A stretch of DNA of 64,000 bases, taken from positions 50,163 through 114,162 of the forward strand of contig JAJYLG010000001.1 in assembly GCA_021787985.1 (NCBI GenBank), in the 5' to 3' direction. The stretch is from Chloroflexota bacterium (GTDB lineage: Bacteria > Chloroflexota > Dehalococcoidia > DSGV01). A model generated the notes under the pieces. That model did no database searches. It saw only the letters and a list, made by a program, of their open reading frames with translations, and was not told where the DNA came from. This document shows, in pieces, positions 32,176 through 46,143 of this stretch (its first letter is position 1; each line of letters starts with the position of its first letter). The translations under genes and the position numbers were made by a program.

Positions 32176-32718
32176 TTACGCTTCCAGCGGGCGCGGCGCC
32201 GCCACTTTGGCGACCACGTCGTCGATCGCGTTCCTGATCACGCCGCGCGAGCTCTCGGTGTCGCCGAACTCGGTTACCTCGGTTGGCGGAAGCACCACCA
32301 TCGGGGAGCTGCTCGCCCCCTTACCCTTGAACGTGACCGTGGCGAGGTTGACGAACCGCTCGGTCACCAGTACCACGGACGGGATGCCCCGTCGAATCAG
32401 CTCGATCGTGTCGTGGACACTCCACGCGGTGCAGGACCCTCAGTTGGCGAGCCCCACGATGGCGATGTCGGCGTTCTCCGTCGCCTGTTGGAGCACGGCC
32501 TCCGACGCGGCGGCGGCGATGGGCACCTCGAACTCGAGGACCTGCGCGACGCCGAACTCATTGACCAGCGTGCCGCGCATCTCGTCGACCAGCTTGTTCA
32601 TGCTCTGCCAGCCGTTGTTGAGAAAGACGACGGACTTGCCCCGCAGGTCTTGCGGGGCGAACTCCGCGGTCACTCGGGTCGCACGAAACGCACCAGCCGT
32701 CGGTTCTACGATCCGCAT
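32176..32718 (-). CDS. UGSC-motif small selenoprotein B (in-frame TGA at ~32440-32442)
   Basis: Starts at ATG 32716-32718 with a GGGAGAAACAC RBS. ORFs 32440..32718 and 32176..32376 are in the same frame: ...DIAIVGLAN-U-GSCTAWSVHDTIELIRRGIPSVVLVTERF.... This is the same architecture as UGSC-A. Confidence 0.7.
32411..32425 (-). other. SECIS-like stem-loop downstream of the UGSC-B TGA
   Basis: The mRNA forms CGUGG-AGUGU-CCACG, 14 nt after the UGA. It is near-identical in shape to the UGSC-A hairpin (loop AGUGU versus AGUAU). Confidence 0.4.
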
Positions 32719-32840: not shown

Positions 32841-32946
32841 CTGGATTCCCGCCCCCCGCCTCCGTGGGGGCAGGCTTCGCGGGAATGGCGAAGAGCGCGG
32901 GAATGATCGACGGCGTGGGAACGACGAAGCGCGGGGATGGCGCGCG
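32841..32946. repeat. Structured intergenic repeat, copy A: ~47-nt imperfect palindrome followed by 3 degenerate ~18-nt direct units beginning GCGGGAAT/GCGGGGAT
   Basis: The core is CTGGATTCCCGCCCCCCGCCTCCGTGGGGGCAGGCTTCGCGGGAATG, with ATTCCCGC...GCGGGAAT arms and an inner CCCCC...GGGGG. It recurs in inverted orientation at 42430-42556 with one mismatch in the core. Confidence 0.6.
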
Positions 32947-33065: not shown

Positions 33066-33141
<76 letters not shown>

Positions 33142-33492
33142 GGGCAAGCGGTAGCCTATCACAGGCCGACCACGCGCTCAATTGCTTGTGGCGCTCCAAG
33201 ACCGGCGGAACAGAGGGAGGGCGAAGGGGTCACGCGGTCTGGTTGGCCTCTCGATGCGGAGTGCACGCAGCTTCCTGCCGGCGGAGCTCGCGGAGTCGGG
33301 CTCCCGACCACGGGGTGCCGGTGGGGAGATCCTCTGGCCGCGACGCCGCGGTCTCACTCCGTTGGCGGACCGACGAACCGAGCCGCAGAACAGCGGGAGA
33401 GCGGAGCCGACCGGCTCCGCTTTCCTGCCACGCGGTGAGCCACGCAGCGGACCCTGCGTTTTTCCCCCGTTGCTCCTCCAACGACCGGGCTC

Positions 33493-34227
33493 CTAGCGCT
33501 TGCGCAGCGCCAGCAGGCCACTCGCGCCGGCCAGCCCGGCCAGGGCCAGGGCGCTCAAGATGAGCGCGGCTTGCGGCCAGCCCTGTGAGGCTTGACCGGA
33601 GCCGGTGTTCGGCGGCACCACCGTACCCGGCAGCGTCGGCGTAGTGCCACCGGGCGTCGCCGATGCGCACGGCGATCCCGTGGCGTCTACGCATGGCGTT
33701 GCTGTCTCCGCCGGGGTAGACGTCGCGCAGGGCGCCGTCGGCGGGCACGGCGTCGCAGTCGTCGGCGGCGGAGTGGATGTCCCGCAGGGCGCCGTCGGCG
33801 GGCAGGGCGTCGCGGTGGTGCCGGGCGTCGCCGTTGGGCACGGCAATCCCGCCGCGTTCACGCATGGCGTGGCTGTCTCTGTTGGAGTGGACGTCGCGCA
33901 GGGTGCTCCGGTCGGTGCGCATGGCGTGGACGTCGGCGTGCACACCGCTCCTGCGGGACACGTTGGCGTCGACGTCGCGGTAGGCGTCGCGCAGGGCACC
34001 CCCGGCACGCACGTGGTAGGGGCCGCCTGTGCCAGCGCAACCTTCGTCCGCAGCGGCCCACCACCCACCGTCGCTCCGGCCAGGCCTGCCAGTGCAAGCG
34101 CGACCAGCGCCAGAGCGAGCACGGCTGTCGCCCGCCGGCCGACATGAGAACGCGTGCGCTCCATCGCCTCGCGCTCGGCCGTTTGCCGTCCGCTTTCCTT
34201 GCCCGATGTCACGGGGTCGTTGTTCAT
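33493..34227 (-). CDS. Thr/Pro/Cys-rich repetitive secreted/surface protein with C-terminal TM segment plus basic tail (sorting-signal-like)
   Basis: Starts at ATG 34225-34227 after a GGAGGAG RBS. It has an N-terminal hydrophobic segment (AVLALALVALALAGLAG), ~14 copies of a TPC/TPCPPTAPC-type repeat, and a C-terminus ...LPGTVVPPNTGSGQASQGWPQAALILSALALAGLAGASGLLALRKR. The DNA shows tandem repeats. Confidence 0.55.
   Translation of the reverse strand: MNNDPVTSGKESGRQTAEREAMERTRSHVGRRATAVLALALVALALAGLAGATVGGGPLRTKVALAQAAPTTCVPGVPCATPTATSTPTCPAGAVCTPTSTPCAPTGAPCATSTPTETATPCVNAAGLPCPTATPGTTATPCPPTAPCGTSTPPPTTATPCPPTAPCATSTPAETATPCVDATGSPCASATPGGTTPTLPGTVVPPNTGSGQASQGWPQAALILSALALAGLAGASGLLALRKR
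33600..34010. repeat. Imperfect tandem DNA repeats inside the Thr/Pro/Cys-rich gene
   Basis: GTGGACGTCGCGCAGGGCG-type units of ~30-45 nt recur. Confidence 0.5.
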
Positions 34228-34637
34228 GTTGCTTTCTCCTCCCGGTGAGAAACCGTGCGGTGTTCGCCCTTACTTGCTCGCGGACCAGCGTCCCCTCGTG
34301 GCACAGGTCCGAAACCTGTGCCACAGGAGACCCGCGGTGCGCACTTCATTCCTCGTGTCCCCGCCCCTCGCCGGACGCCCGATCCTGTCGCTCCGGGCTC
34401 GGGGCGCTGGCGAGCCGGAGTGTGATGAAGTCGGTCAGGTCGGCGAGGGAGGAGAAGTACAGCCGCTGCCCCGAGGGCACGTGCTCGACCGAGCCGGGCC
34501 ATTGGCCGGGCCCCGCGCGGCCCGGCTCGTGCCAGATGCGCACGATGAACAGATGCTGCGGCCGTCGCGCGGGCTCGGCCAATTTCGCCTCCTTACGGTA
34601 TCCGTGACACTGCGGGCTCAGGTGGGTCACCCGACGG

Positions 34638-39899: not shown

Positions 39900-39976
39900 G
39901 GGCGGTTAGCTCAGTTGGTTAGAGCGCCACGTTGACATCGTGGAGGTCACTGGTTCGAGTCCAGTATCGCCCACCA
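39900..39976 (+). tRNA. tRNA-Val (anticodon GAC)
   Basis: Acceptor GGGCGGT/ATCGCCC with a G-U pair, D-arm GCTC-AGTTGGTTA-GAGC, anticodon loop TTGACAT, T-arm ACTGG-TTCGAGT-CCAGT, and an encoded CCA. Confidence 0.9.
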
Positions 39977-40282: not shown

Positions 40283-40549
40283 ATGAGCAAGAAGAAGCGC
40301 GCCAAGACGGCGGCCCCAACGGGATCGCGCGGCTGGAAGGCGTTCTCCGGCGTCTTCACCGTCATCTACGCGGTCGGCGCCGGGGTGAGCGTCGTGGCCG
40401 GGGTGGCCTTCGCTACCTATGGGGACTGGGTCGGGGCGGCGCTGATGCTTGGGAGCGCCGCGGTCCTTGGCCTGGGCGTCGTCCAGCACCTGGGCTATTT
40501 CCGTCGCGGCAGGCCGATCACGCGGCGCGGGAAGGATGGTGAGCGATGA
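40283..40549 (+). CDS. Small two-helix membrane protein (88 aa)
   Basis: Reads MSKKKRAKTAAPTGSRGWKAFSGVFTVIYAVGAGVSVVAGVAFATYGDWVGAALMLGSAAVLGLGVVQHLGYFRRG.... A GGAG RBS lies 7 nt upstream. Its stop overlaps the thrS ATG (ATGA). Confidence 0.45.
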   Translation: MSKKKRAKTAAPTGSRGWKAFSGVFTVIYAVGAGVSVVAGVAFATYGDWVGAALMLGSAAVLGLGVVQHLGYFRRGRPITRRGKDGER

Positions 40550-42309
40550 GCGCGAAGCTGGAGGCGATGTCCAAGGGGGAGCGGCTGCTCCGCATGCGGC
40601 ACTCGGCCTCGCACGTGATGGCGCAGGCGGTCCTCGAGATCTTCCCGATGGCGAAGTGGGCCATCGGCCCTGCCATCGACACCGGCTTCTACTACGACTT
40701 CGACCTCCCGCGCCCGCTCACGCCGGAGGACCTGGAAGATGTCGCGCGCAGGATGCAGGAAACGGTCCGCCGCGGCGACGCGTTCGCGCAGCGCTTCGTC
40801 GACAAGGAGGAAGCGCGCCGCATCTTCGCCGGCCAGCCGTACAAGATCGAGCTGATCGACGGCATCGCCGATGAGCGGGTCTCGCTCTACCAGCAGGGCC
40901 CGTTCCTCGACCTCTGCGAAGGGCCGCACGTCGAGCGGACAGACCAGATCGGCGCGTTCAAGCTGATGAGCGTGGCCGGGGCGTATTGGCGGGGAGACGA
41001 GCGCCGGCCGATGCTGCAACGCATCTACGGCGCTCTGTTCGAGACGCAGCAGGACCTGGACCAGCACCTCCACCAGCTCGAGGAGGCGCGCAGGCGCGAT
41101 CACCGGCGCCTTGGTCGCGAGCTGGGCCTGTTCACCTCGGCGGAGGAGGTCGGCGCGGGGCTGCCGCTGTGGCTGCCCAAGGGCGCCGCCGTCCGGCGCA
41201 TTCTCGAGACCTACATCGTGGAGGAGGAGCGGAGGCGCGGCTACCAGCACGTCTACACGCCCCATCTGGCGAAGGTGGAGCTGTACCAGCGGTCCGGCCA
41301 TTGGGATCACTATCGCGACTCGATGTTCCCGCCCATGGTGCTGGAGAACGAGCAGCTTGTGCTGCGGCCGATGAACTGCCCGCACCACATCACGATCTAC
41401 GGCGCCGGCCAGCACTCCTACCGTGAGCTGCCGGTCCGGCTGGCCGAGCTGGGCACGATGTACCGCTATGAGAAGTCGGGCGAGCTGGCCGGCCTGTCGC
41501 GCGTGCGCGCCATGACGCTCAACGATGCCCACATCTTCTGCCGGCTCGACCAGCTCAAGGACGAGTTCCTGGGGGTGCTCGACCTGATCCGCGAGGCGTA
41601 CCGCGTGCTGGGCTTCCGCGACCACTGGTACCGGCTTTCGCTGCGCGACCCCGCCGACACGGAGAAGTACGTCCAGAACGACGCCATGTGGGACGAGGCC
41701 GAACGCCTGCTGCACGAGGCGATGGACGAGACCGATCTTGAGTACGTCGACGCGCCGGGCGAGGCTTCCTTCTACGGGCCGAAGCTCGACGTGCAGGTGC
41801 GCAACGCCACCGGCCGGGACGAGACCGTCTCGACCATCCAGATCGACTTCCACCTGCCGGAGCGGTTCGGGCTCGAGTACATCGGCGCGGACGGTCAGCC
41901 GCACCGGCCGGTGATCATCCATCGCGGGGTGATCTCGACGATGGAGCGGCTGATGGCTTTTCTGATCGAGACCTACGCCGGCGTCTTCCCGGTGTGGCTG
42001 GCGCCGGTCCAGGCTACCTTCATCCCGATCGCCGACCGGCATCTGGATTACGCGCGGGCGGCGGCACGGCGCTTTATCGAAGCCGGGCTGCGGGTGGAGG
42101 TGGACGACGGCCAAGAGCGGATGAGCGCCAAGATCCGCAACGCCCAGCTCCAGAAAGTGCCGTACATGCTGGTGTGCGGCGACCGGGAGGTCGGCGGGGG
42201 GGCGCTGGCCGTGCGGACGCGCGGTGGGCAGGACCTCGGCCCGATGCCGGCCGAGGCGGTGCTGCGGCGGCTGCTCGAGGAGTCGAAGCCCGGGGCGGAG
42301 TCGACGTGA
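40546..42309 (+). CDS. thrS: Threonine--tRNA ligase (short form without N-terminal TGS domain)
   Basis: Contains ...RMRHSASHVMAQAV... (the editing-domain HxxxH), ...DHRRLGRELGLF... and class II motifs 2 and 3, and at 587 aa is consistent with a short-form ThrRS. Confidence 0.9.
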   Translation: MSAKLEAMSKGERLLRMRHSASHVMAQAVLEIFPMAKWAIGPAIDTGFYYDFDLPRPLTPEDLEDVARRMQETVRRGDAFAQRFVDKEEARRIFAGQPYKIELIDGIADERVSLYQQGPFLDLCEGPHVERTDQIGAFKLMSVAGAYWRGDERRPMLQRIYGALFETQQDLDQHLHQLEEARRRDHRRLGRELGLFTSAEEVGAGLPLWLPKGAAVRRILETYIVEEERRRGYQHVYTPHLAKVELYQRSGHWDHYRDSMFPPMVLENEQLVLRPMNCPHHITIYGAGQHSYRELPVRLAELGTMYRYEKSGELAGLSRVRAMTLNDAHIFCRLDQLKDEFLGVLDLIREAYRVLGFRDHWYRLSLRDPADTEKYVQNDAMWDEAERLLHEAMDETDLEYVDAPGEASFYGPKLDVQVRNATGRDETVSTIQIDFHLPERFGLEYIGADGQPHRPVIIHRGVISTMERLMAFLIETYAGVFPVWLAPVQATFIPIADRHLDYARAAARRFIEAGLRVEVDDGQERMSAKIRNAQLQKVPYMLVCGDREVGGGALAVRTRGGQDLGPMPAEAVLRRLLEESKPGAEST

Positions 42310-42429: not shown

Positions 42430-42556
42430 GAGCGCGCGCGCCCACGCCCACCGTCACTCCCGCGCGCCCGCCGTCATTCCCGCGAAGCCTGCCCCCGCGG
42501 AGGCGGGGGGCGGGAATCCAGCATCGAGCGGCCTTCTCCCCGCCCTGGATTCCGGC
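42430..42556. repeat. Structured intergenic repeat, copy B (inverted relative to copy A), plus an adjacent GGAATCCAG/CTGGATTCC hairpin
   Basis: Tandem CCCACCGTCACTCCCGCG / CCCGCCGTCATTCCCGCG units are followed by CATTCCCGCGAAGCCTGCCCCCGCGGAGGCGGGGGGCGGGAATCCAG. Confidence 0.6.
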
Positions 42557-42570
42557 TCGCGCTCGCGTCC

Positions 42571-42645
42571 GCTCGCCAGGATGCTGGGCTACGACGAGGC
42601 GGACGTGGACTGGCTGCCGTCCGCCGAGGCGGAGTCCTTGGCGAC
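42571..42645 (+). pseudogene. ~75-nt fragment duplicating an internal segment of the ArsM-like methyltransferase gene (45012-45086)
   Basis: ~90% nucleotide identity. It translates to LARMLGYDEADVDWLPSAEAESLA versus LARMLGYDEADLDRLPSAVAESFA in the full gene. Confidence 0.5.
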
Positions 42646-42945
42646 CGCGGATGCGGCGCCCGGGAGAATGAAAGATTTCTCCCTATGGTCTGTCGGGCTT
42701 GACAGCATTATGAACGTTTCGTATGATTCTCTCTGTCCGAGCGCGTGCCAGACGGCGCTGCTCGGAGGGGACGTCGGATGCGCCCTGCGTCGCGCTGTCG
42801 GCTTTGCGCTACACCGTTCGAAGGTCCAGGCGGTTGGGTCAACCGAGTGTTCCGTCGCGTGACGCGCTTCCGTAAGAATCCCAACATCTGCACAACGTGA
42901 AACGAACTTACGCCCCTGGGTCAGGGGCAGCGGCGCACAGTCAGC

Positions 42946-43485
42946 GTGCTCTTCGCTGACTGCCGCGGCTTTTCCGCCCTCGTCGAGAGCTACCCGGCTG
43001 AAGAAGTGGTCCGGGTGCTCAACCGCTTTTTCCAAGCCGCCACCGACGTATTGCTGGCCCACGATGCCTGTATCGACAAGCTCATGGGAGACCAGCTCAT
43101 GGCCGTGTTCGGTGCCCCGATTGTGCGGCCGGACCACGCAGACCAGGCCGTCGAGGCCGCGGTCGAGATACAGACGGCGATGACGGAGTTGTTTCCCCGC
43201 GGGGGAGAGCCGCGCCTCCGGATCGGCATCGCCATCAACAGCGGCGTGGCTCTGGTGGGCAACCTGGGCTCTCGCGAGTTCAAGGACTTCACGGCCATCG
43301 GCGACGTGGTCAATCTGGGCGCCCACCTTCAGGAGCAGGCAGGACCTGGCGAGGTGCTCGTTACCGAGGCAACCACAGGGATGCTGGCGAAGCAGCCGGA
43401 CCACGCCGCGGGGCGAGTCGTGGCCGTCAAGGGTCGAGCTGAGCCAGTGCGGGTAACGGCCCTCGTGTTTCCGGAAGGCACTTGA
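42946..43485 (+). CDS. Class III adenylate/guanylate cyclase catalytic (CHD) domain protein
   Basis: Contains ...RRTVSVLFADCRGFSALVESY... and ...IGIAINSGVALVGNLGSREFKDFTAIGDVVNLGAHL.... It has a GTG start at 42946 (a CTG further upstream is also possible). No other domains. Confidence 0.6.
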   Translation: MLFADCRGFSALVESYPAEEVVRVLNRFFQAATDVLLAHDACIDKLMGDQLMAVFGAPIVRPDHADQAVEAAVEIQTAMTELFPRGGEPRLRIGIAINSGVALVGNLGSREFKDFTAIGDVVNLGAHLQEQAGPGEVLVTEATTGMLAKQPDHAAGRVVAVKGRAEPVRVTALVFPEGT

Positions 43486-44177
43486 TGGCCCCGGTCACGC
43501 CGCTGCTGCGGGTCCCCCTGTTCGCGGGGCTGCGTCCGCCCGAGCTGGAGGAGATCGCGCGGCGGCTGGTCCCGCGCCTCTATCGGCGGGGCCAGGTGGT
43601 CTTTCACCAGGGAGACCCCGGCGGCTGCCTCTACATCATTGAGCGCGGAAGCGTGAAGGTCTCCCTTCTGTCGGAGACGGGAGAGGAAGCGCTGCTCGCA
43701 ATCATGGGCGCCGGCGACTTCTTCGGCGAGCTGGCGTTGATCGACGGTCAACCCAGATCGGCCACCGTGATCGCCCTGGCAGACACGCGTGCCTGCACGC
43801 TTGACCACCAGAGCTTCCTCGCCTTCTTCGGGGCCTCGCCCGAGGCTGCCGTCGCGGTCTGCGGCGCCTTGGCGGCTCGGCTGCGCCAGATGAACCAGCG
43901 TTTCGCCGAGGTCATCTCCCTTGATCTGCCCGGACGACTGGCCAAGTGCCTGCTCGAGCTGGCGGAGCGGAACGGCGAGGCGGTGGCCGAGGGAGTGGCG
44001 TTCGAGCTGCCGCTCAGCCAGAGGGAGATAGGGGAGCTGGTGGGGGCGTCGCGCCAAAGCGTCAATCGCGCGCTCGCCCAGTGGGAACACCTGGGACTCT
44101 TACGACGACGCCACCGCCGCATCGTCCTCGTCCGTCCGGACGCCCTGCAACGGCGCATCGTGCCACGGCTGTCGTAA
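43485..44177 (+). CDS. Crp/Fnr-family transcriptional regulator
   Basis: Has a cNMP-binding domain (...FFGELALIDGQPRSATVIA...) and a C-terminal HTH (...SQREIGELVGASRQSVNRAL...). The ATG overlaps the upstream stop (TGATG). Confidence 0.8.
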   Translation: MAPVTPLLRVPLFAGLRPPELEEIARRLVPRLYRRGQVVFHQGDPGGCLYIIERGSVKVSLLSETGEEALLAIMGAGDFFGELALIDGQPRSATVIALADTRACTLDHQSFLAFFGASPEAAVAVCGALAARLRQMNQRFAEVISLDLPGRLAKCLLELAERNGEAVAEGVAFELPLSQREIGELVGASRQSVNRALAQWEHLGLLRRRHRRIVLVRPDALQRRIVPRLS

Positions 44178-44280
44178 AGATGACACCTCAAGTGTCTCGC
44201 CGACGCTACTCGCGCGGTCGGGCGGCGAGGCGTAATGAAGACGCTTGATCATAAGCACTCGCGCAACGGGGAGGACAGCG

Positions 44281-44838
44281 ATGACGACAACCATCAACCG
44301 CAACGGCATCAACATCGATCAGCTCATGCAGACGATTGAGGCCATCCGCCAGGACCCGGAGCTGGCGCGGTTCCAGTTCCGGGCACACAGCGAGTGGCAA
44401 GGCGGCGCACGCTCCGCTACCAGGATTCAGGGTTTCTATGGCGCCGGCCAAGAGGACAGCTCGCGTTCGCGGCCGTTCGAGGTCGGTGGGGACGAGCCGC
44501 CGCTGCTCCTGGGCACGGACACGGCTCCCAACGCGGTGGAGACGGTGCTGGCGGCCCTCGCCTCCTGCCTGACAGTGGGCTACGTCTACAACGCCGCGGC
44601 GCAGGGCGTCAAGATCGAGTCGCTGGACTTCGACCTGGAGGGCGATGCGGACCTGCGGGGCTTCCTGGGCCTGTCGGAGACGGTCCGGCCGGGGTTCGGC
44701 GGGATCCGGCTCACCTACCGCGTGAAGGCAGATGCACCTCGCGAGAAGCTCGAAGAGCTATGCGAGTACGTTCAACGCACCTCACCGGTGCTGGATATCA
44801 TCCGCAATCCTGTGCCGGTGTCGATCGAACTGCGGTAG
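44281..44838 (+). CDS. OsmC/Ohr-family protein
   Basis: Contains ...FRAHSEWQGGARSATRIQGFYGAGQ... and ...LAALASCLTVGYVYNAAAQGVKIESL.... A GGGGAGGA RBS precedes it. Confidence 0.75.
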   Translation: MTTTINRNGINIDQLMQTIEAIRQDPELARFQFRAHSEWQGGARSATRIQGFYGAGQEDSSRSRPFEVGGDEPPLLLGTDTAPNAVETVLAALASCLTVGYVYNAAAQGVKIESLDFDLEGDADLRGFLGLSETVRPGFGGIRLTYRVKADAPREKLEELCEYVQRTSPVLDIIRNPVPVSIELR

Positions 44839-44885: not shown

Positions 44886-45857
44886 ATGAGAGGACGACTC
44901 CAGGCGGCGCTGGTCGACCGCGACGCGCTTCGGTCTCAGATCCGGGACAAGTACACGGTGGTGGCCCTCGAACCGCAGACGGGCTTCCATTTCCACACGG
45001 GCCGGCCGCTCGCCAGGATGCTCGGCTACGACGAGGCGGACCTGGACCGGCTGCCGTCCGCCGTGGCGGAGTCCTTCGCCGGCACGGGCAACCCGTTCGC
45101 CTTCGGACGGCTGGCGGAAGGCGAGGTGGTCGTCGACATCGGGTGCGGCGCCGGGTTCGACACCTTGTTGGCGGCTGGGCAGGTCGGGCCACGGGGCCGA
45201 GTCATTGCCGTGGACATGACCCCCGCCATGCTCGACAAGGCCGCCGCGGGCGCCCTGGTCCTCAACCTCCGCAACGTCGAGGTACGCCACGGCGTTGCGG
45301 AGGAGCTGCCGGTGCCCAGTCAATCGGCCGACGTTGTCATCAGCAACGGCGTCATGAATCTGTGCCCGGACAAGCTCGCGGCCATGCGCGAGGTCCGCCG
45401 TGTGCTGCGGCCAGGCGGGCGTTTCCAGATCGGCGACCTGGTCGTGCACCAGGAGGTGCCACAGGACGCGAAGGACGACATCGACCTGTGGTCCGGCTGA
45501 ATCGCCGGGGCTCTGCTGGAAGCAGAGTGGGACTGGGTCCTCAAGCACGCCGGGTTCATCGACGTGCGCTGGGGCCGCCAGGTGGATGTCTTCGCGGGCT
45601 CCAAGCACGAGTCCGACGCTCAGGAATTCGGTGCGCGTGGCGTCACGTTCGCTGGTAGGAGACCCATGCGGGCGGCCGACCCCGCGCCCGTGTGGGCGGA
45701 GCGCGACTCTGATGGCGGCCGCCGGTGCGCGGTCCCGGTCGCGTCGGCTGGCCAGCAGCCAGGCCCTTCGTGTGGTAAGATGCAGTCACGGGGACGAAAG
45801 GGCTCGACAGGGGCCGGCGTGCTCGGGTTGCAGGCCGAGGTGCCATCAACCTCGTAA
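44886..45857 (+). CDS. ArsM-like SAM-dependent methyltransferase with in-frame TGA (45498-45500) at the conserved catalytic Cys position. Predicted selenoprotein; 3' end uncertain.
   Basis: Contains a GCGAG SAM motif (VVDIGCGAGFDTLL) and ...VVISNGVMNLCPDK.... Around the TGA it reads DIDLWSG-TGA-IAGALLEAEWDWVLKHAGFIDVRW..., and typical ArsM sequence continues in frame after it. The nominal stop at 45855-45857 overlaps the tmRNA 5' end by ~68 nt. Confidence 0.55.
45511..45527 (+). other. SECIS-like stem-loop 10 nt downstream of the ArsM-like TGA
   Basis: CUCUGC-UGGAA-GCAGAG: a 6-bp stem with a 5-nt loop. Confidence 0.4.
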
Positions 45858-46143
45858 ATCAGGTGGCAAACAAGTAACTGGCGAACCACAACTCGCCCTC
45901 GCTGCCTAAGAGCTAGGCAGCCGTCCGCCACCGCCTCGTCCCGGTGGGTGGTGAACGGGCGACGCAATGCCGGGATGCCGCGCAGCGCTCGCTGACGACG
46001 CGCGCGAAAGATCAGTCAGCCCGCCCCGAAGGGACGCCGGCGGTAGCGGCCCGAGGGGCTCAAACAAAGTGCCGCAGAAGCCTGTGGATGCCCGGGGCGT
46101 ACGCTCACTGGACCGGGGGTTCAATTCCCCCGCGTCTCCACCA
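45790..46143 (+). ncRNA. ssrA: tmRNA (ssrA), tag peptide GEPQLALAA
   Basis: The 5' GGGGACG pairs with the 3' CGUCUCC-A-CCA. The T-arm is GGGGG-UUCAAUU-CCCCC. The tag ORF GGC GAA CCA CAA CTC GCC CTC GCT GCC TAA runs 45880-45909. It is followed by the hairpin CTGCCTAAGAGCTAGGCAG. Confidence 0.85.

Follow-up and report, generated by a model that had tools for sequence, protein, structure and literature searches.

Two long-loop hairpin repeats of probable CGTC-1/NTS type in a Chloroflexota genome

Among the CGTC-tagged REP sequences described by Di Nocera et al. in 2013 (PMC3733652), CGTC-1 is a repeat with an 8-bp stem starting with AT, a 4-nt loop and a CCA tail. It is dispersed through host genomes in many copies, is known from five phyla and includes the RPE-6 repeat of Rickettsia, and no dedicated transposase or other enzyme was found for it. 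Loops measure 4-5 nt across the CGTC families, with variable loops noted for CGTC-1 in Bradyrhizobium, and the tag (CGTC, or TGTC/CCTC) is unpaired. Inverted dimers occur, tail-to-tail dimers being rare in these families (PMC3733652).

The second closely related system is that of the Ssn nucleases (Nat Commun 2025; PMC11893778), whose targets, the Neisseria dRS3/NTS and the broader SRM (Ssn-related motif), are the same repeat as CGTC-1. SsnA, a 94-aa GIY-YIG protein, binds its target, the NTS, solely as single-stranded DNA and solely on the forward strand; its cut lies upstream of the tag. The NTS was defined as CGTCATTCCCGCGMAVGCGGGAATCYRG, a 28-mer, and the SRM as a degenerate motif with a 0-5 nt loop. 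Binding and cutting were demonstrated for Neisseria and Wolbachia elements; the GTC preceding the palindrome matters for cutting and the C following it for binding. The Ssn family occurs mainly in Pseudomonadati, and ssn genes are typically flanked by such motifs (PMC11893778). Both the repeat family and its partner enzyme are thus already known, and the element reported here is an ordinary member of a very widespread family of hairpin repeats. What is new with respect to PMC3733652 and PMC11893778 is a subfamily with a nested loop, together with polar arrays of half-sites.

Two inverted copies and their match to the NTS

The window, i.e. the whole stretch of Chloroflexota DNA that was analysed, is 64,000 nt long (64 kb) and has a composition of ~69% G+C. 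A 42-nt core, ATTCCCGC-CCCCCGC-CTCC-GYGGGGG-CAGGCTTC-GCGGGAAT, occurs exactly twice in it, at 32845-32886 on the plus strand (copy A) and at 42476-42517 on the minus strand (copy B); none is expected by chance (100 shuffles). The two copies form an inverted repeat of 70 nt, 87% complementary, which ranks fifth in length among those returned by a repeat finder for the window. When the CTGG head and the following G are included, the resulting 47-nt cores are identical at 46 of 47 positions, the sole difference being a T at 32865 in copy A versus a C in copy B. An earlier sequence-only reading had proposed two inverted, structured, intergenic copies with 47-nt cores differing by one base, and both statements are borne out.

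Adjoining the core, the half-site stretch 32888-32925 of copy A, which covers its first two extra half-sites, is identical to copy B at 26 of 38 positions (68%). Identity is at background beyond the unit (10/21 over 32926-32946) and before the core (17/41). As identity drops to background on both sides, the homologous unit is ~85 nt long (32841-32925 in copy A, 42441-42521 in copy B). The ranges first proposed for the copies correctly take in core and array, but that of copy A, ending at 32946, includes the background-level stretch 32926-32946, and that of copy B, ending at 42556, includes a separate third element (42545-42556). The parts are as follows.

32841..32925, NTS-forward strand minus: copy A, whole unit (hairpin and two extra half-sites), from homology to copy B
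32841..32890, minus strand: copy A core, from pairwise comparison and reading of the sequence; in plus-strand coordinates, tail CTGG 32841-44, arm ATTCCCGC 32845-52, inner hairpin CCCCCGC/CTCC/GTGGGGG 32853-70, conserved box CAGGCTTC 32871-78, arm GCGGGAAT 32879-86, degenerate tag 32887-90 (CGCC on the forward strand, not CGTC)
32897..32922, minus strand: extra half-sites of copy A on the tag side, GCGGGAATGATC at 32897-32908 (exact arm, GCGGGAATGA) and GTGGGAAC at 32915-32922, 18 nt apart, both aligning with copy B half-sites
32931..32946, minus strand: doubtful fourth half-site GCGGGGAT (2 mismatches) and GC-rich tail, without counterpart in copy B
42441..42521, NTS-forward strand plus: copy B, whole unit, from homology to copy A
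42472..42521, plus strand: copy B core, with tag CGTC 42472-75, arm ATTCCCGC 42476-83, GAAGCCTG 42484-91, inner hairpin CCCCCGC/GGAG/GCGGGGG 42492-42509, arm GCGGGAAT 42510-17, tail CCAG 42518-21
42441..42463, plus strand: extra half-sites of copy B, 5' of the tag, CGTC-ACTCCCGC at 42452-42463 and a decayed CCCACGCC at 42441-42448; on the minus strand, the half-sites of copy B lie at 42474-42483, 42454-42463 (GCGGGAGTGA) and 42441-42448 (GGCGTGGG)
42545-42556, plus strand: remnant of a third element, CTGGATTCCGGC (tail and arm, one change), tail-to-tail with copy B

The half-sites of copy A begin at positions 32879, 32897, 32915 and, with some doubt, 32931, giving spacings of 18, 18 and 16 nt. 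A palindrome followed by half-site units of ~18 nt, as proposed from the sequence, is present in both copies and recurs in unrelated genomes. Matches of the CTGGATTCCGGC type number 3 in the window versus 0.03 expected by chance, and the window carries 2 full copies and 1 remnant altogether. Judging from its sequence, copy B looks intact. Copy A looks partly decayed: its tag is CGCC, and the inner stem of its forward strand contains one C.A mismatch, which corresponds to a plus-strand G.T wobble.

The plus-strand sequence of copy B reads CGTC-ATTCCCGCG...GCGGGAAT-CCAG. Once loop length is freed, it agrees with the published NTS (CGTCATTCCCGCG-loop-GCGGGAATCYRG) at 25 of the 25 fixed tag, arm and tail positions, whereas the published NTS 28-mer and the SRM motif, with its 0-5 nt loop, have 0 matches in the window on either strand. 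The CGTC tag of copy B (42472-42475) is found again in its second half-site (42452-42455), and is degenerate (CGCC) in copy A. Both copies have the exact 8-bp stem ATTCCCGC/GCGGGAAT, with A-T as first and second pairs, and a CCA-type tail (CCAG after the 3' arm on the forward strand). As to the directional determinants of the NTS, copy B has both GTC and C, while copy A has only the C, its GTC being replaced by GCC. The loop departs from the 4 nt of CGTC-1: 26 nt separate the arms, and they contain a nested 7-bp hairpin and a conserved 8-nt box. Given the 25 matching NTS positions together with a CGTC tag, a tail of the CCA type and a stem that begins in AT, we assign both loci to a CGTC-1/NTS-type Ssn target repeat, in a long-loop variant with a half-site array on the tag side, a reading to which we give a probability of roughly 0.7. 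The identity of arms, tag and tail with those of the Neisseria dRS3/NTS goes beyond what had been noticed from the sequence, as does the recognition of the asymmetric "imperfect palindrome" as a hairpin nested inside an NTS loop.

The earlier description of the repeat as REP/MITE-like holds for the REP part. A MITE was rejected, as the element is a single asymmetric hairpin with direct half-sites, has no terminal inverted repeats around a body and shows no target-site duplication; none is visible at either copy, and the flanks of A and B are unrelated.

Distribution and folding of the long-loop form

On the forward strand, the 26-nt loop consists of GAAGCCTG followed by the hairpin CCCCCGC-GGAG-GCGGGGG. 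A long-loop pattern, ATTCCCGC-N16-31-GCTTYGCGGGAAT, was scanned on a collection of species-representative genomes and retrieved at least 119 genome stretches from more than 10 phyla, all sharing the same arms, tag, tail and GAAGCYTG box. The matches listed come from Chloroflexota, Nitrospirota, Proteobacteria (several classes), Planctomycetota, Acidobacteriota, Cyanobacteria, Bacteroidota, Saccharibacteria and others, and three of these loci (L073, L108 and L127) differ from copy B in the inner loop alone. A scan of the metagenome collection for the exact variant was negative, and copy A had no blastn match among plasmids.

Covariation was evaluated on an alignment of 78 distinct long-loop sequences, all taken on the forward strand; the outer helix is invariant in this alignment, being fixed by the search pattern. 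In the inner helix, 95.8% of the cells are paired and 6 of the 7 pairs have changed on both sides. The covariation score is 0.216 versus 0.085 in shuffled alignments (0/500 reach the observed value), and sliding the partners as a control leaves at most 58% of the cells paired. Forward-strand pairing amounts to 98% in the family alignment. Among non-Watson-Crick cells, G.T falls 47 times on the NTS-forward strand and 14 times on the other strand, an asymmetry which points to selection on the strand read by Ssn and fits recognition of one strand.

A chance resemblance or a purely local duplication, with neither family nor function, might be argued from the presence of two full copies within 64 kb, their exact variant being absent from the metagenome collection and from plasmids. 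We consider it extremely improbable, as arms, tag, tail and GAAGCYTG are shared by the many stretches retrieved across phyla, the inner stem covaries, no copy is expected by chance in the window, and the core is 98% identical between copies against 68% for the adjoining array.

Both copies fold as single-stranded DNA into the nested hairpin. The core of copy B has a predicted folding energy of -17.0 kcal/mol (z -2.1), and z reaches -2.9 in a 100-nt context. For the short cores, the high G+C content of the sequence keeps the z-scores modest (-0.65 to -2.5). Of the four core strands, three have their outer arms paired in the DNA fold. On the forward strand of copy A, the outer arm pairs in a 113-nt context only, and its partner there is the second half-site.

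A hairpin may also act at the RNA level, in the 3'-UTR, by stabilising or terminating the tRNA-Lys and thrS transcripts, as has been proposed for classical REPs. Both forward strands correspond to the sense strand of the gene that immediately precedes the copy, and the excess of G.U-type wobbles on that strand would fit an RNA hairpin as well. However, no T-run follows either hairpin, a terminator scan was negative at both copies, and Rfam returned no match with E up to 10. Moreover, on the basis of crude gene calls, ~116 family members are oriented without preference with respect to adjacent ORFs (35:34 upstream, 32:29 downstream), and SsnA has no action on RNA (PMC11893778). We thus regard an RNA element as unlikely. 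The candidates of an intrinsic terminator and of a described Rfam family were dropped on the same T-run, terminator-scan and Rfam results.

Several loci carry the long-loop element in other arrangements. In a Dehalococcoidia MAG (L069, CBDCYT010000006.1, 2367-2788), seven complete long-loop elements follow each other head-to-tail with a 63-nt period; this array is made of whole elements, not of half-sites, and the inner hairpins differ slightly. Three loci (L072, L094 and L136) are perfect palindromes in which GTCATTCCCGCGAAGCTTG-stem is paired to its complete complement, leaving a GAC tag at either end; they may be head-to-head fusions of two elements. Finally, four Chloroflexota MAG loci (L071, L110, L143 and L182) share a GACGGAGGGGTTACGCAAAGGTC-like sequence of 25-30 nt after the long-loop element, weaker in L167, which suggests a larger composite repeat in Chloroflexota.

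Half-site arrays on the tag side

About 7-14% of the long-loop elements have an extra half-site within 60 nt, versus a chance of roughly 0.02% for a 9-mer match in those 60 nt; arrays are a minority feature, with an overall frequency of only roughly 5-14%. The arrays are polar: according to a mirrored pair of patterns, an extra arm accompanies the hairpin on the tag side in 42 stretches, against 1 stretch with it on the tail side. The tag side is also the side on which Ssn cuts (PMC11893778), and the one bearing the half-sites in both window copies. Of 62 units, 51 are 18-21 nt long, and those of the window measure 18, 18, 20 and 18 nt. Tag-side arrays of half-sites are not described in PMC11893778, in the text of which the word "tandem" occurs 0 times.

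Similar arrangements are found in viral contigs. A loose pattern of the outer arms, GGATTCCCGC-N15-45-GCGGGAATG, retrieved 67 viral stretches of 40-66% GC, where a hairpin is followed by GCGGGAATGAC half-sites. Their common architecture is cTGG-ATTCCCGC-loop-GCGGGAAT-GAC, then units made of a short spacer and GCGGGAATGAC, the spacers often being identical within an array; the repeat is that known as dRS3 in Neisseria. In the metagenome collection, the composite pattern of hairpin plus half-sites had a single match (L313), located in an unrelated AT-rich contig and showing the same composite of long-loop hairpin, CAGGCTTC, arm and half-site units of 19 nt. In arrays such as that of another locus (L083), the spacer AAGCTTC reproduces the box conserved in long-loop elements. 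The sequence-only reading had dismissed a CRISPR array, and rightly so: there are only 2-3 units of 16-20 nt, with 7-10 nt between arms and no regular unique spacers, and the spacers of the family arrays are identical within an array.

It had also viewed the units as iterated protein-binding sites. Recognition by a protein does apply to the characterised members of the family, which are bound by Ssn (PMC11893778), but the site is a single-stranded hairpin on one strand rather than a series of duplex sites. Duplex sites of the iteron kind, bound by a regulator, an initiator or a transposase, would combine an inverted site with direct repeats about two helical turns apart; the half-site spacing of 18-21 nt, in the window as in the family, suits such an arrangement, and copy A precedes the -35 box of the UGSC promoter-like site by 38 nt. 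However, the array occurs in a minority of long-loop elements and is thus not the conserved part, the conserved and covarying features being the hairpin stems. In addition, neighbour genes vary between loci, no gene with a recombinase or transposase domain is next to either copy, and DNA-binding genes in the vicinity are limited to a Crp-family ORF, at ~1 kb from copy B, and a BTAD/AAA/TPR regulator, at ~3 kb from copy A. Iteron-like sites are therefore very improbable.

Under the preferred reading, that of an Ssn target repeat, the forward strand (minus for copy A, plus for copy B) would become single-stranded during replication or repair or in incoming DNA, and the arms ATTCCCGC/GCGGGAAT would then pair. 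By analogy with SsnA, Ssn would bind the stem and the C that follows, and would cut the strand a few nt 5' of the CGTC tag. The family and the ssn genes, usually flanked by such hairpins, would spread jointly. In the long-loop subfamily, the NTS loop holds the nested covarying hairpin and GAAGCYTG, so that Ssn would have to tolerate a long loop. The extra tag-plus-arm half-sites would most likely stem from local duplication by the cut site, through slippage or template switching. This origin by duplication on the cut side is what we infer from polarity and unit size alone. The half-sites may then serve as alternative 5' arms for the single 3' arm. The minimum-energy structure predicted for copy A DNA pairs its single 3' arm with the second 5' half-site, so that the array offers alternative arms.

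A more speculative reading, which we hold to be possible but doubtful, is that the long loop and the strictly tag-side arrays of 18-21 nt units are footprints of Ssn-type nucleases creating or multiplying their own target repeats. Following a cut 5' of the tag, repair by fold-back or template switching would copy tag and arm again. The nested form, to judge from the order of its parts (arm, small hairpin, spacer AAGCTTC/AGGCTTC, arm), may be an old "hairpin plus one unit", i.e. the fossil of a hairpin with one array unit. If true, this would account mechanistically for how CGTC REPs spread, no transposase having been known for them since 2013. The nearly exclusive location of half-sites on the cut side (42:1) and their narrow unit size offer a testable clue to the origin of the repeats.

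Genomic neighbours, ssn genes and related systems

Copy A is located between the tRNA-Lys gene (33066-33141, minus) and the promoter-like site (32803-32775, minus) of UGSC-family ORFs (32176-32718, minus), as had been proposed. An in-frame TGA (32437-32439) divides the UGSC-family gene into two ORFs, with PF24696 profile positions 2-91 and 94-167 on either side. As the profile continues on either side of it, this TGA is probably a selenocysteine codon. On the other side of copy A, the tRNA-Lys gene adjoins a 364-aa ORF (33230-34324, minus) containing direct DNA repeats, 57 and 171 nt long, whose identity to the reference copies is 63-82%; this ORF has no Pfam match.

The placement of copy B after thrS and beside an arsM fragment is likewise confirmed. 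ThrS is encoded at 40546-42309 (plus), just downstream of tRNA-Val (39900-39976), and copy B lies 120-210 nt past it; its relatives in other genomes, the best of which is 70% identical, are labelled Dehalococcoidia or Chloroflexota, in keeping with a Chloroflexota host. Copy B adjoins a 77-nt N-terminal fragment of an arsM-like methyltransferase gene (42566-42645), the full gene being located 2.4 kb downstream, and the third-element remnant ends 9 nt short of this fragment. The fragment is ~92% identical to the 5' part of the methyltransferase gene at 45003-45079. From the sequence, the remnant and the displaced fragment look like the scar of a rearrangement at the repeat. Further downstream, a sigma-70-type promoter close to consensus (TTGACA-17-TATGAT, 11/12; 42699-42727, plus) lies in a local A+T-rich patch and is followed by ORFs for an adenylate/guanylate cyclase domain (42946-43485), a Crp-family regulator (43482-44177) and an OsmC-like protein (44245-44838). 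A tmRNA gene (45790-46143, plus; tag peptide GEPQLALAA) is found directly 3' of the methyltransferase gene.

These neighbours bear on the possibility that the copies are attachment or recombination sites of a site-specific recombinase and mark the boundary of an inversion or insertion. Indeed, dRS3 has been described as the target of the recombinase of a Neisseria filamentous prophage (PMC11893778), copy A adjoins tRNA-Lys, and the remnant and displaced arsM-like fragment beside copy B indicate a past rearrangement. Yet no integrase, IS110/Piv or other recombinase domain was detected among the ORFs scanned between and beside the copies, the 9.6-kb segment between them holds the housekeeping tRNA-Lys, tRNA-Val and thrS genes, and its composition is not distinctive. 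Such a recombinase site is quite improbable, and the related candidate of a mobile or invertible 9.6-kb segment bounded by the copies was dropped given the same genes, the same scan and the ordinary composition.

No homologue of ssn, the gene of a single-domain GIY-YIG protein (cd10448), was found in the 64-kb window, either by a GIY-YIG motif scan or by tblastn (best E 0.29). Similarly, no ssn gene was found in the Chloroflexota loci that were fetched, each of which spans only ~8 kb. These results count against the Ssn reading, as do a host in Chloroflexota rather than in Pseudomonadati and a loop longer than the SRM motif allows. The Ssn-like family comprises 7,975 proteins at E <= 1e-10, with PF01541 in 120 of the 120 matches listed. 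Genes of this kind (PF01541, ~97 aa) are located directly beside long-loop elements in three loci (L076, L103 and L086); in addition, an ssn gene stands beside a short-loop element (L034) and an ssn fragment beside a long-loop element (L177). A stricter GIY-YIG motif scan of the 67 viral loci gave no match, while a looser scan combined with tblastn revealed ssn genes in two of them (L025 and L034). One ssn gene (P0135) is flanked by a hairpin and a half-site array in three loci (L307-L309). In a fourth one (L306), at least six units of 23 nt run up to this gene without an upstream hairpin, and only the first has the exact arm. Other loop variants flank ssn in L311 and L312. Under the preferred reading, the DSGV01 host would have a cognate Ssn.

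The long-loop subfamily with its covarying inner hairpin is thus present in many phyla, including Chloroflexota. Since the 0-5 nt loop limit of the published motifs would exclude long-loop copies, counts of Ssn targets are likely to be underestimates. For genome annotation, such elements explain spurious ORFs of the "VIPAKAGIQ" type as well as local rearrangement scars, such as the arsM-like fragment by copy B.

Among known systems, the Neisseria dRS3/NTS and the SRM have the same CGTC tag, 8-bp arms ATTCCCGC/GCGGGAAT and CCAG tail as copy B, and like it they are directional hairpins of single-stranded DNA. They differ by their loop, which is 3-5 nt long, versus 26 nt with a nested covarying hairpin and GAAGCYTG in the window element. 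In the Ssn system, the ssn genes are typically flanked by the motifs, and they lie beside long-loop relatives in several loci, while the window element belongs to a Chloroflexota host and has no ssn gene within 64 kb. With CGTC-1 REPs, it shares the tag, the 8-bp stem starting with AT, the CCA-type tail, the intergenic location and the formation of inverted dimers, although the pair formed by copy B and the remnant is tail-to-tail, the rare kind.

The GTAG REPs and REPINs, with their RAYT proteins (tyrosine transposases of the IS200/IS605 type), also involve a short tagged hairpin read as single-stranded DNA and, as in the Ssn system, a small nuclease whose gene is flanked by repeats. They differ in the tag (GTAG) and in the fold of the enzyme (HUH/Y1 versus GIY-YIG). 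Moreover, REPINs are inverted doublets, whereas the window element is a hairpin with a direct array of half-sites. Finally, in the neisserial intergenic mosaic elements (NIME), dRS3-type hairpins are clustered with other short repeats between genes. There the hairpins alternate with RS repeats of 50-150 bp, in contrast to the units of the window, which are 18-20 nt copies of tag and arm.
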